Source: a virus
Taxonomy: Duplodnaviria > Caudoviricetes
DNA: 64,000 bases
Direction: 5' to 3' (one strand)
Virus record (IMG/VR): IMGVR_UViG_3300031857_000001
Shown: positions 2,840-47,923 of the stretch, in pieces
Layout: each line of letters starts with the position of its first letter
Numbering within the stretch: position 1 is the stretch's first letter
Position numbers and translations under genes: made by a program
The notes under the pieces: generated by a model
Seen by the model: only the letters and a program-made list of their open reading frames with translations
Told to the model about the DNA's origin: nothing
Databases searched by the model: none

Positions 2840-3184
2840 ATGAATAATATTGAACAATATAGAAAAAGGTTCTTTATGTTAATGGAGTCATCAATGGGTG
2901 ATGTTAAACCATTAATCTTGGAAACCAGTTTAGATTTGAATACTGCAACCATATATTGGATGAGTTGTGGAGGTGATGAAGTTGAATTAACTCCCGATTC
3001 TAAGAAACTGTTATTACCTGGTAAGGTAATAAATAATACACAATATTATTATTTTGATTCTGAACCTAATGACGCCATTGGTGAATATAAAATTATGGAA
3101 TGTCTTGGACCTGAGATTGGCAAACAAGATGATTTGTATATTGATGGGGATTCGGGTAAATTATTCTTAACTAAGAATTATTAA
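2840..3184 (+). CDS. hypothetical protein with MESxMGDVxP leader
   Basis: Leader shared with 12517 and 14316. Confidence 0.75.
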   Translation: MNNIEQYRKRFFMLMESSMGDVKPLILETSLDLNTATIYWMSCGGDEVELTPDSKKLLLPGKVINNTQYYYFDSEPNDAIGEYKIMECLGPEIGKQDDLYIDGDSGKLFLTKNY

Positions 3185-40846: not shown

Positions 40847-41001
40847 AATTACTATTTTTGACCTTAAAATTGACATATTTTTGATTTTTAGGTATATTTA
40901 TCAAAACTATCACTCTCATCTGAGAGCCTATATATAGAAAAAGGGACTTAAATTTTGTTAAGTCCCTTTTTTCATTAAAAAACTTGTCGTATATTTGTAC
41001 T

Positions 41002-45180: not shown

Positions 45181-45866
45181 TAAAATTAACCCCTGAAATA
45201 CAGAAAGAATTAATTACCTTATCCGAAAACAAAAACTTATTTTTGGAAGGGAATATTGTTAAGGTAATTAATTCTGATGGGGATGATGATTTTAAAGAAT
45301 ACCTTAAAAAGTGTGGGGAAAAGGATGTTGCAAATAGAAAAAAGAGACTTGATATAACCAAACAAATCCAAACCCAAAATAAAGAATTATCTGATTTAAA
45401 CTCCCAAAACCAAAAAATATTAGAAGAACTCCAAACTACATTAAAGGAAGTAGAAGAATCCAAATTAACATTTGAAGTTCAAAACAGAGAACTAAACGAG
45501 TGGAAACTGGATAATTTGAGGTTAACGGAAGAATTAAAGGTGGAGATGGTTAAATCCGAACAAGCAAGGGTTGAGGCTGAAAAGGCAAAACAACATGCCG
45601 AAAATGATTTGGATGTGTTACAAAAGAAAACTCAATTTGAGTTAATAAATACAATTGTAAGAGTTGCGTTGATTGTAATTATTGGAGTTGGGATAGTTAC
45701 CACGGCATTATATTCTGTGGCATTATTCACAGGTCAAGATACACAAATAATTGGGTCAACTTGGAGCAATATGTTTGGTATATTATTAACAAACGCATTT
45801 AGTATTGTCGGAACAATAATGGGTGTTAAGTACGCATCTGAAAAGCCAAAAAAAGGGGGTCAATGA
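45177..45866 (+). CDS. coiled-coil protein with two C-terminal TM helices
   Basis: ATGA overlap with the regulator; heptad-rich N-terminus; two hydrophobic segments. Confidence 0.75.
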   Translation: MIKLTPEIQKELITLSENKNLFLEGNIVKVINSDGDDDFKEYLKKCGEKDVANRKKRLDITKQIQTQNKELSDLNSQNQKILEELQTTLKEVEESKLTFEVQNRELNEWKLDNLRLTEELKVEMVKSEQARVEAEKAKQHAENDLDVLQKKTQFELINTIVRVALIVIIGVGIVTTALYSVALFTGQDTQIIGSTWSNMFGILLTNAFSIVGTIMGVKYASEKPKKGGQ

Positions 45867-45877
45867 CCCCCCATTTT
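45851..45877. terminator. bidirectional terminator between convergent genes
   Basis: GGGGGTCA/TGACCCCC stem flanked by A and T runs. Confidence 0.7.
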
Positions 45878-45880
45878 CAT

Positions 45881-46738
45881 TTAAAATTTCTGTAAATCAC
45901 CATAATTCATGTGTAATTCAGCATGTTCATCTTTCATCATTTGGTAAGCTCTTGCAAGACGAGTCAAACCGATACCACCACCAAATCTTTTAAAGAATTT
46001 GTGAGATAAAAACTCCTCAAGTTCCTTCTCAACTCGCTCTTTTCCAAATAATTCAAACAATTTGTTAGAATATCCGCCATTTTCGATGGTATAAAACATT
46101 TCTCTCATTTCATCAACGTCACAACTTCTTTCAGCAGAGCCAATAGTTTCTTGACCATAAAGAATAACATCAATTTTGTTAAATTTGTCATTCTGACCTG
46201 ACTTCATATTCCAAAATGGGTTAGTCCTGAGTGGGAAATTTTGTAGAGATACAACACAACCTTTTTCTTTCCACATTCTTGACTCATGTTCGTTTTCCAA
46301 AATCTTAACTCCACCGTATTCGCTACAAACATCATCGTAATTTACTTCGACTGGGGTGTCAAAACCTAAAAACGTTAAAAGTTCCAATTCCAATCTTTTT
46401 AATTCTTCCATTCCACCTTTTGATTCAAACTCAAACATGGGAAAGATTAATTCGTGACGACCAGGGATTGGGTCTTTTTCTTGACGATAAGAAGTTGAGA
46501 TACAGAACACACCTGGCCACTCAGGATTCTTTAATAGTTCATACTCCAACCACATCTGACCTGTTTGGGGTAACGGCCAAATCTCACCTTTATACTCAAA
46601 TGTGGTGATTGAGTGTGGATTCTCACATGCCGCAAGAATTGATAGTCTTGATTGAGTAGGAACCTCAATAAAACCTTTGTTTAGGAAAAAAGTCCTCATT
46701 TTTTGGACCAACTCGTGATAAATTTTTGTGTTTTTCAT
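45881..46738 (-). CDS. class II Asn/Asp-tRNA-synthetase-like catalytic domain without anticodon-binding domain (probable asparagine synthetase, archaeal AsnA type)
   Basis: Motif 1 RTFF...GFIEVPT, motif 2 SYRQE...RH...F.MFEFE, motif 3 GGGIGLTRL; only 285 aa. Confidence 0.75.
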   Translation of the reverse strand: MKNTKIYHELVQKMRTFFLNKGFIEVPTQSRLSILAACENPHSITTFEYKGEIWPLPQTGQMWLEYELLKNPEWPGVFCISTSYRQEKDPIPGRHELIFPMFEFESKGGMEELKRLELELLTFLGFDTPVEVNYDDVCSEYGGVKILENEHESRMWKEKGCVVSLQNFPLRTNPFWNMKSGQNDKFNKIDVILYGQETIGSAERSCDVDEMREMFYTIENGGYSNKLFELFGKERVEKELEEFLSHKFFKRFGGGIGLTRLARAYQMMKDEHAELHMNYGDLQKF

Positions 46739-46751
46739 ATAACTTTTGGGT

Positions 46752-46777
46752 AAAAAAAAACCTCCCGAAGGAGGTTT
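46752..46777 (-). terminator. attenuator-like terminator in the 5' leader of the AsnRS-like gene
   Basis: Minus strand AAACCUCC-UUCG-GGAGG followed by a U9 tract, ending 13 nt before ATG 46738. Confidence 0.85.
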
Positions 46778-46781
46778 ACGT

Positions 46782-46811
46782 TTATTTATTATTTATTAAA
46801 TTGTTTATCAT
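46782..46811 (-). CDS. putative Asn-rich leader peptide MINNLINNK
   Basis: ATG ATA AAC AAT TTA ATA AAT AAT AAA TAA; TATTTAT 6 nt upstream; stop 4 nt before the terminator. Confidence 0.65.
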   Translation of the reverse strand: MINNLINNK

Positions 46812-46882
46812 TTTGATATAAATACGGCACAAAGTTGAAAAATAAATAGGTTTTTTAATTTTTTTTTGTAGTATTTATAGAT

Positions 46883-47923
46883 ATGAAAGTTTTATTGTCT
46901 GAAGAACAGTTAAAAACATTAATTAAGGAGGATTTGGGGGTGTCAAGGGCATCTTTGGCTTATGCTAATTTAATTTATCAAACATTAGAATCAAAAGCGG
47001 TTGAATTCATGGAATTAAGAAATGAATCTCAAGAAAAAATTGTTATCAGTTTACAAGATATGTCAAGAATTTATCAATCCAGTATGGATGACTATATTGA
47101 GTTACCTGTTGAAAAAATCGAGATTAATTTTATTTGTAGTAAGATTCCGAAAGGTAATAAAAATATTAAATTCACATCAGGAGGTGGTTTTGAATCAATA
47201 GACAAAAAATCTTTTGGTGGTTCTTATTTAAAAGAACCGTCATTAGAATTACCAAAATATGTTTTAGAGGAAGTTACACAAACTTTAGTTGCTAAATTTA
47301 GTTTGTATTTCAAATTGAGTTCAGATTTTAGTGACGAATTTAAAGATAAGGCACTATATGATTTGAGAGATACGATAATACATGAATGTAACCATCTTTT
47401 TGAAAGTTATAAAAGAGCCGAGTCAGGAGCAAAACAATTCAACGTTTCTTTAAGCTGGGTAGGGGGTAAAAATTATAATGTTAATAGAGAAATATTCAAA
47501 ATCTGGCAAGAATTTCTTGATATGATTTATTATTCAGAGCCATATGAAATAAATGCCAAATCACAAGAAGCGGTAAGTCAAACATCTATCATGTCATTCG
47601 ATGAATTCAAAAAAACCAAATTTTGGCAAGATTCATCAGTTATGAAAAATTTTAACTCAGAATTATATATTGATAAATTATTGAGTAAAATTCAAGAAGT
47701 AAATCCTGAAAAAACCATATCTATCTTAAATAATCTATATAAATGGTTCATGACGGATTATTATAAATGGATGAAAGTTCATGGTGAGTCTCCTGCCAGA
47801 TACATTGAAAAAACAACAGGGTTGTTTGACTTAGTTAAGAAGTTTAAAAGTAGAATTAACAAAGCTGGTGACAAATTACAGAGAAATTACATGAGACTGT
47901 ATACTTTGGACCTCGAAAAATAA
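46883..47923 (+). CDS. zincin-like (HExxH) protein with MKVLLSEEQL leader
   Basis: IIHECNHLFE...YEINA; resembles 1663..2769. Confidence 0.7.
   Translation: MKVLLSEEQLKTLIKEDLGVSRASLAYANLIYQTLESKAVEFMELRNESQEKIVISLQDMSRIYQSSMDDYIELPVEKIEINFICSKIPKGNKNIKFTSGGGFESIDKKSFGGSYLKEPSLELPKYVLEEVTQTLVAKFSLYFKLSSDFSDEFKDKALYDLRDTIIHECNHLFESYKRAESGAKQFNVSLSWVGGKNYNVNREIFKIWQEFLDMIYYSEPYEINAKSQEAVSQTSIMSFDEFKKTKFWQDSSVMKNFNSELYIDKLLSKIQEVNPEKTISILNNLYKWFMTDYYKWMKVHGESPARYIEKTTGLFDLVKKFKSRINKAGDKLQRNYMRLYTLDLEK

Follow-up and report, generated by a model that had tools for sequence, protein, structure and literature searches.

A possible asparagine-tuned, single-hairpin attenuator before an AsnRS-like gene of giant freshwater phages

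How is a gene expressed when an intrinsic terminator stands between its promoter and its start codon? The question is raised by a 64,000-nt (64-kb) stretch of DNA from a virus of the Caudoviricetes (Duplodnaviria; IMG/VR record IMGVR_UViG_3300031857_000001), which we refer to as the window. Its minus strand carries, in order, a TATTTAT motif, a short upstream open reading frame (uORF) rich in asparagine (Asn) codons that encodes MINNLINNK, a terminator hairpin with a U tract, and a gene for a protein resembling asparaginyl-tRNA synthetase (AsnRS). An initial annotation had listed these elements as a candidate Asn-sensing attenuator, and reading the sequence bears out the layout to the base. 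As an answer, we tentatively propose that giant phages of freshwater Bacteroidota gate the AsnRS-like enzyme by a leaderless, Asn-codon-tuned attenuator with a single hairpin, which would act via coupling and uncoupling of ribosome and polymerase.

The leader of the AsnRS-like gene and its conservation

In the window, 4 nt (ACGT) separate the uORF stop codon from the hairpin, which was flagged as terminator-like by a consensus terminator scan and is the sole stable structure of the leader by RNAfold. An Rfam search of the region returned nothing at gathering threshold, the best sub-threshold scores being 23.6 bits for Phe_leader (cut-off 55) and 24.3 bits for rli60 (cut-off 60). Since the upstream neighbour is divergent and has a start signal of its own, the hairpin lies in a 5′ leader and not at the 3′ end of a gene; with only 13 nt between the U tract and the ATG, the gene must be reached through the terminator. 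A bidirectional terminator for antisense transcripts was rejected, as the plus-strand tail is U-poor here and in relatives.

Metagenomes contain at least 8000 relatives of the AsnRS-like protein. From three scans of viral contigs we obtained 190 ortholog loci at 69–97% identity, many on contigs of 200–460 kb, and deduplication left 110 distinct upstream regions. A hairpin followed by T7–9 is present in 88 of the 110. The ortholog hairpins comprise 51 distinct stem sequences, all of which pair, with energies of -7.5 to -14.9 kcal/mol (about -12 kcal/mol in the family of the window), and an alignment anchored on the U tract reveals compensatory changes at every aligned stem pair. The start signal followed by a short ORF that ends at, in or beyond the hairpin was found in 79 of the 110 regions, across about 25 families of leader peptide. 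Orthologs in other phages thus keep an Asn-rich uORF and a terminator, the check that the initial annotation had suggested. Because the layout recurs upstream of orthologs with unrelated leader sequences, it is more than chance. A promoter-like signal occurs within the spacer between U tract and gene in just 1 of 88 orthologs, so that the gene is evidently reached through the terminator in the relatives as well.

The motif TATTTAT belongs to a wider pattern. Counting both strands of the window, 24 long ORFs have the signal TATATTTAT/GTATTTAT 3–16 nt upstream of their ATG (Table 1), and TATTTAT is better read as the putative general gene-start or promoter signal of the phage. By sequence comparison the signal resembles the -7 box of the flavobacterial sigma-A promoter, TAnnTTTG at -12 to -5 (PMC9723704). 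Applying the spacing of that box places the predicted transcript start 0–4 nt before the ATG, and the mRNA would therefore be leaderless. The mRNAs of this phage appear to be mostly of this kind; in the flavobacterial hosts only about 5% of mRNAs are leaderless (PMC9723704). The start context of the leader ORF is the same as that of the phage's real genes, and 46825 is the only site in the window at which the signal is followed by a short ORF and a terminator. A T4-type late promoter, TATAAATA on the plus strand, was rejected: it is merely the reverse complement of the motif first noted, whereas forward TATTTAT precedes genes on both strands and the plus-strand neighbour has its own copy.

Table 1 Coordinates of the features discussed (window positions, unless a locus is named)
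Feature	Position	Strand	Remark
Weaker second signal copy CTATTTATT	46841..46849	-	24 nt farther upstream than the main copy
Promoter-like gene-start signal GTATTTATA	46817..46825	-	ends 5 nt upstream of the uORF ATG
TATTTAT core	46824..46818	-	within the 46817..46825 signal GTATTTATA; 6 nt (ATCAAA) from core to uORF ATG
Leader ORF, MINNLINNK and stop (ATG ATA AAC AAT TTA ATA AAT AAT AAA TAA)	46782..46811	-	
Asn codons of the leader ORF	46805-46803, 46802-46800, 46793-46791, 46790-46788	-	4 Asn in 9 codons, as two NN pairs
Terminator hairpin, DNA AAACCTCC-TTCG-GGAGGTTT, RNA AAACCUCC-UUCG-GGAGGUUU	46758..46777	-	
GC core of hairpin, CCUCC/GGAGG	46774..46770 / 46765..46761	-	
Terminator U9 tract	46752..46760	-	first three U are the last three bases of the hairpin
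ACCC directly 3′ of U tract	46748..46751	-	GCCC in most relatives
A-rich 13-nt spacer ACCCAAAAGTTAT, U tract to main ATG	46739..46751	-	too short for a promoter
Regulated gene, 285-aa class IIb aminoacyl-tRNA synthetase core (AsnRS/AspRS-like)	45881..46738	-	ATG at 46738
Terminator downstream of regulated gene	45854..45872	-	from terminator scan; unit monocistronic
Divergent gene	46883..47923	+	
Gene-start signal of divergent gene, GTATTTATA	46871..46879	+	own copy
Signal copies before long ORFs (examples)	534, 910, 2827, 4627, 7352, 8706, 10623, 46871, 53323	+	
Signal copies before long ORFs (examples)	54960, 27155, 19222	-	
Cyanophage tRNA(GUU), 87–88 nt	L191:3278-3364 (P-SSM7), L192:3298-3385 (P-SSM2)		directly downstream of ortholog

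Several further features were seen around the signal and the terminator. At 40893-40960 on the plus strand of the window, TATATTTAT is followed by a hairpin (CTCTCATCTGAGAG) and no ATG, and a small non-coding RNA may be encoded here. An intergenic element, CAATCCCCC(T/A)ACCCCCTTTTTT, is repeated at 883, 1485, 2801, 3497 and 4601 on the same strand; each copy stands 3′ of genes, immediately ahead of the following gene-start signal. The element is rich in C, contains a run of T and forms no hairpin, and it may act as an unusual signal for termination or processing. In ortholog locus L179, roughly 40 nt ahead of the gene, the gene-start signal precedes a mini-ORF, ATG TAA, without a terminator, and the main ATG lies 15 nt downstream of the mini-ORF stop. 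Directly after the U tract, 54 of 88 ortholog leaders carry RCCC (mostly GCCC). This tetranucleotide is confined to this family of leaders, not being general among the terminators of the window, and no consistent complement to GCCC was found when a pairing partner was sought in the 3′ arm of the hairpin.

Other ortholog clades carry different leaders, and cyanophage orthologs carry none. In L020, L026, L032, L034, L046, L054, L076 and L167 another conserved leader lies about 40–110 nt before the gene (which starts at about 3001); it consists of GATATATAC, a variable hairpin, exactly A10 and TTTCTATG, and has neither U tract nor uORF. In L021, L024, L028 and L073 a long co-directional gene takes the place of the uORF before the same hairpin.

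Asparagine codons in the leader frame

The approximately 25 families of leader peptide have little or no similarity to one another and range from 7 to 26 codons. Besides MINNLINNK, examples are MTNTNLENI, MKRYELYTPNNYIT, MMNNNRNLNINYKKS, MVTKKVKRKLRNLNNNNIFKKS, MKKLQNNGDNNPF, MENNITNNNYLLNKK and MRFRRKYNNNNNKIVIGNPVI; Asn-free leaders (MITKKKFTK, MRKKTQK) also exist. In each of the 25 families the reading frame continues without a stop from the ATG to a point no more than 20 nt from the hairpin; by shuffling, 10.9 would be expected to do so. Relative to the first paired base, the uORF stop of 24 families falls between -14 and +15 nt, in many cases within the 5′ arm, and does so whatever the length of the ORF. 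The leader ORF of the remaining family (F25, three leaders) is read through both the hairpin and the U tract.

Two groups of longer uORF were observed. In the read-through family just named, with L016 (about 2860–3003), L036 and L105, the uORF has 41–44 codons (...PLLIPSIEGIFFA...), and that of L016 ends in an ATGA overlap with the main start codon. The clade of L072 and L134 has a conserved, Lys-rich upstream ORF of 39 aa ending KGE(G/A)IAKMNGII (...KGEGIAKMNGII) and followed by the terminator, which could be a genuine small protein and not just a leader.

What the families have in common is their composition. Weighted by family, AAY makes up 19.3% of codons in the frame of the leader ORF, compared with 6.2% and 5.2% in the other two frames, and Lys codons have no such phase effect. 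We counted 78 Asn codons against 46 ± 6 in stop-free mononucleotide shuffles (z 5.1, the only strong outlier), with Lys at expectation in the same shuffles (z 0.2). Codons of identical base composition differ in the same direction, AAT occurring 55 times versus 20 for ATA, and AAC 23 times versus 9 each for ACA and CAA, while AAG, AGA and GAA are even. The proteome of the phage contains 6.4% Asn, and length-matched windows of its proteins, drawn at random or from N termini, hold 26–29 Asn compared with the 78 of the leaders. Pairs of adjacent Asn codons are present in 12 of the 25 families, against 1–4 expected (1–2 families in the protein windows). Within families, 9 of 22 variable Asn columns change only synonymously, between AAT and AAC, compared with 1 of 41 for Lys, Ile, Arg and Thr together. 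The initial annotation had cautioned that AAT codons are common in AT-rich DNA; the Asn excess nevertheless holds against the other frames, codons of the same composition, shuffles and the proteome. Selection for Asn codons in the translated frame would be the simplest reading of these patterns.

The same counts bear on a constitutive damper that senses no amino acid, an explanation we consider unlikely. It would consist of a promoter module that always brings an ATG and a leaky terminator, which together set a low, fixed level of expression; the Asn bias would result from other constraints on an A-rich, unstructured, stop-free leader, for example the avoidance of poly-A. An ATG at a fixed distance from the signal is indeed common to all genes here, the uORF is replaced by a long co-directional gene in the four loci named above, several leaders have 0–1 Asn codons, and the leader may be too short for a ribosome to affect the first polymerase. 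Against this, the Asn excess is frame-specific and exceeds composition-matched nulls, with Lys, built from the same bases, at expectation. Changes between AAT and AAC are tolerated far more than replacements, and the frame is open to the hairpin in 25 of 25 families where about 11 would be expected. The association with an Asn-related enzyme, unique in the window, also speaks against a simple damper.

How a ribosome could open the terminator

It is possible, and we adopt it here as a provisional reading, that the element is a ribosome-read transcription attenuator with one hairpin, which would turn on the AsnRS-like gene when Asn decoding is fast. We infer leader translation, termination at the hairpin and the site of transcript start from sequence, and likewise the sign of the response. 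Transcription would begin at the standard gene-start signal, a few bases before the leader AUG, and give a leaderless mRNA. If no ribosome is close, polymerase would meet the intrinsic terminator (GC hairpin and U8–9) and stop before the gene. A ribosome following closely behind polymerase would stand at the last sense codon or the stop codon, by the foot of the hairpin, as polymerase comes to the end of the U tract; folding would be hindered and read-through would ensue. With a leader loaded with Asn codons, ribosome speed would depend on charged tRNA-Asn, and slow decoding of AAU and AAC would let the ribosome lag, the hairpin form and the gene remain unmade.

The geometry of the window is consistent with such an arrangement. 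With the ribosome at the last sense or stop codon and polymerase at the end of the U tract, about 35 nt lie between the P site and the RNA 3′ end. This is roughly the closest approach in collided ribosome-polymerase complexes, and the hairpin would therefore have no room to fold. Folding of the leaders, both complete and lacking the 3′ arm, gave the 5′ arm no other partner in any family, confirming the absence of an antiterminator already noted for the window; the RNA upstream of the hairpin is essentially unstructured in most families (0 to about -2 kcal/mol). Lacking an antiterminator to act through, a ribosome could exert its effect only by being physically at or near the hairpin. Asn-free leaders and leaders that traverse the hairpin keep the same layout, which fits better with translation allowing read-through than with stalling allowing it. 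Two parts of this logic have direct experimental precedent in other leaders: termination rose 26-fold when a stall motif was placed upstream of the pyrL hairpin (PMC5021804), and in rph-pyrE the distance between stop codon and attenuator matters (PMC2784333). Leader-peptide attenuation has been reported in the flavobacterial hosts (PMC9723704).

Several points weigh against this mechanism. The leader is very short, its U tract ending after about 60 nt, and has no evident pause site at which a ribosome could catch up; it is A-rich and free of U-rich pause tracts, the only candidate being the U8–9 followed by G/A at the terminator itself. For roughly half of the families, a ribosome positioned at the stop codon would touch just the first few bases of the GC core, and in F04 it would hardly come to the core at all. 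Stop codons near terminators are also the normal gene-end geometry in this phage. Some leaders hold no more than one Asn codon, and the 25 families share ancestry, so they are not fully independent samples. Two lake metatranscriptome runs yielded 4 short contigs, at a depth of 2–3.5 and all inside the coding region; contigs of this kind cannot reveal RNA starts or ends. Finally, the predicted sign is physiologically odd, as it would shut off an Asn-supplying enzyme when charged tRNA-Asn is scarce. Being off under slow Asn decoding would suit an enzyme that consumes Asn or tracks the supply of tRNA-Asn, not one that supplies Asn.

This last point is removed if the same attenuator works with the opposite sign, which we also judge to be improbable overall. 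A ribosome stalled at Asn codons beside the hairpin would hinder its folding, and the gene would be on under shortage of tRNA-Asn, a natural physiology for an enzyme that supplies Asn or Asn-tRNA. The Asn enrichment and the synonymous conservation fit this sign equally well. Precedent favours it too, pheM-pheST being a case of leader-peptide control of an aminoacyl-tRNA synthetase gene that behaves as the classical amino-acid attenuators do, and such control of synthetase genes is further known from a His leader before hisS paralogs (PMC2965389).

Where the two signs differ is in the position required of the ribosome. The 5′ arm begins with the last Asn codons (AAT-CCN, Asn-Pro) in F10, F11 and F23; in F05 and F16 these codons lie 3–8 nt before it. 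Established footprint and toeprint values put the leading edge of a ribosome about 12 nt past the first base of the codon in its A site. When this codon is the last Asn codon of the window (46790..46788), the edge would come to about 46777, the A-U foot of the stem, and end 3 nt short of the CCUCC core (46774). The initial suggestion that a ribosome stalled on the last Asn pair covers the 5′ arm is thus a poor fit to the window. Across most families the last Asn codon is found 11–31 nt before the hairpin, in 13 of 22 at more than 12 nt from it, and the first hungry codon is always farther away than the last. There is no antiterminator to relay a distant stall, Asn-free leaders would never open, and in experiment stalls upstream of a lone terminator hairpin raise termination (PMC5021804). 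Masking by a stalled ribosome would accordingly suit a minority of families only, namely F10, F11 and F23 and, in part, F05 and F16.

The attenuator reading with read-through under fast decoding also has to be set against the idea that the unit is an independent micro-gene or small RNA, in which a terminated transcript of about 60 nt or an Asn-rich peptide is the product and the enzyme merely lies downstream. The unit does have its own promoter-like signal and terminator, one clade has the conserved 39-aa upstream ORF described above, and trans-acting attenuator RNAs and leader peptides are known, for example rnTrpL/peTrpL (PMC7968998). Peptide sequence and length (7–26 aa) nevertheless vary between families, with only the composition kept, and neither structure nor conservation is seen in the RNA ahead of the hairpin. 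The enzyme gene of the window, 13 nt after the U tract, would moreover be left with no other route of transcription. We regard a micro-gene as quite improbable.

Hungry-codon frameshifting, in which a starved ribosome slips on the A-rich Asn stretch, bypasses the stop and melts the hairpin by translating it, is hardly credible. In its favour, from the second NN pair onwards the +1 frame of the window runs through the hairpin without a stop and coincides with the frame of the main ORF, the -1 frame continues until a UGA that overlaps the main AUG, and in L001 (the window's own leader family) and F07 (L009) one alternate frame reaches a stop overlapping the main ATG. Against it, the main ATG falls at random in the three frames set by the uORF when families are compared (11:9:5), alternate frames frequently run into a stop ahead of the hairpin or within it, and a hairpin with a U tract is naturally stop-free. 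A programmed frameshift or bypass across families is not supported by these sequences.

The AsnRS-like enzyme and known attenuators

The protein behind the terminator matches Pfam tRNA-synt_2 (3.4e-12) and corresponds to the core of a class IIb aminoacyl-tRNA synthetase without the anticodon-binding domain, its start falling at about position 21 of the catalytic-domain profile. In sequence and profile searches of solved structures AsnRS came first, the best profile match in the PDB being 2xgt (1.3e-7). An AF2 model reached a pLDDT of 83.7; compared by Foldseek, this predicted fold appears to match the cores of AsnRS/AspRS and, along its whole length, archaeal asparagine synthetase AsnA (3rex/3rl6, TM 0.62–0.64 by target). 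The NCBIfam models for AsnA, AsnRS, AspRS and EpmA all scored far below their cut-offs, with 17.4 bits for NF005055 (cut-off 389) and 17–21 bits for the asnS models (cut-offs 343–414). Like the archaeal-type asparagine synthetase A (AS-AR; 3rex, 3rl6, 1nnh), the phage protein is a class IIb core of about 285–295 aa without an anticodon-binding domain. Unlike the archaeal AsnA and AsnRS proteins, with which identity is only about 20%, it scores far under the cut-offs of the curated families, and it differs from AsnRS in having no N-terminal anticodon-binding OB domain.

A second connection to Asn comes from cyanophages. In both cyanophage genomes with an ortholog (P-SSM7 and P-SSM2) a tRNA(GUU) follows 7–9 nt after the gene. 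This adjacency would be an independent link to Asn, and hints at a tRNA-directed role rather than synthesis of free Asn. These tRNAs have a long variable arm, an 8-bp acceptor stem and a 3-bp D stem, and may be dedicated partners of the enzyme that lacks an anticodon domain. No tRNA-Asn was found within 3 kb of the gene in the 58 freshwater loci scanned, including leader-bearing ones. Two related complete phage contigs encode an ordinary 73-nt tRNA-Asn(GUU) in distant tRNA arrays, and the closest large relative had no tRNA-Asn in the stretches examined. An Asn-related function of the enzyme is supported by these comparisons. The initial annotation had seen in the leader independent support for an Asn synthetase; the leader does agree with a function related to Asn, but synthesis of asparagine in particular is not borne out.

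If our proposal is true, ribosome-mediated attenuation specific to an amino acid would be described here for the first time in phages, and for the first time for asparagine. The tRNA(GUU) genes carried by some of the phages could combine with the leader into a feed-forward switch, in which the enzyme follows the usable tRNA-Asn available during infection. Phages would then have adopted ribosome-mediated attenuation to read the translational state of the host codon by codon. The minimal layout, with no leader sequence, no antiterminator and 7–26 codons, would constitute a compact natural test of the ribosome-polymerase distance that defeats a terminator. Attention is also drawn to the 'headless AsnRS', very widespread and uncharacterised in lake and marine phages, the level of which would matter enough to be gated by Asn decoding.

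Ribosome-mediated attenuation is textbook control of bacterial amino-acid operons. To our knowledge, Asn is not among the published specificities of leader-peptide attenuators. A full-text literature search brought up neither a leader peptide for asparagine nor a phage gene under an amino-acid attenuator, which is not proof of absence. With the classical attenuators (trpL, hisL, leuL, thrL and pheL; pheM-pheST) the phage leader shares a short ORF biased towards the codons of a single amino acid, an intrinsic terminator placed ahead of a gene linked to this amino acid, and a fast turnover of leader sequences in which composition is kept. It lacks their defining feature, having neither a 1:2 pause hairpin nor a 2:3 antiterminator, and unlike theirs its stop codon abuts the terminator.

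In other respects the phage leader is closer to pyrBI (with its leader pyrL) and rph-pyrE of Escherichia coli and Salmonella. There, too, a single intrinsic terminator is found without an antiterminator, and the upstream frame ends just before, inside or beyond the hairpin. Read-through at these operons needs a ribosome close behind polymerase, and a slowed ribosome raises termination (PMC5021804; PMC2784333), as we propose for the phage. In contrast to the phage leader, both operons sense the speed of nucleotide-limited polymerase and have no amino-acid codon bias. The phage leader has no evident U-rich pause sites, and in its Asn-enriched ORF the variable sensed would be the speed of the ribosome. 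It further differs in being predicted leaderless, only 7–26 codons long and phage-encoded, and in controlling an aminoacyl-tRNA synthetase-like gene.

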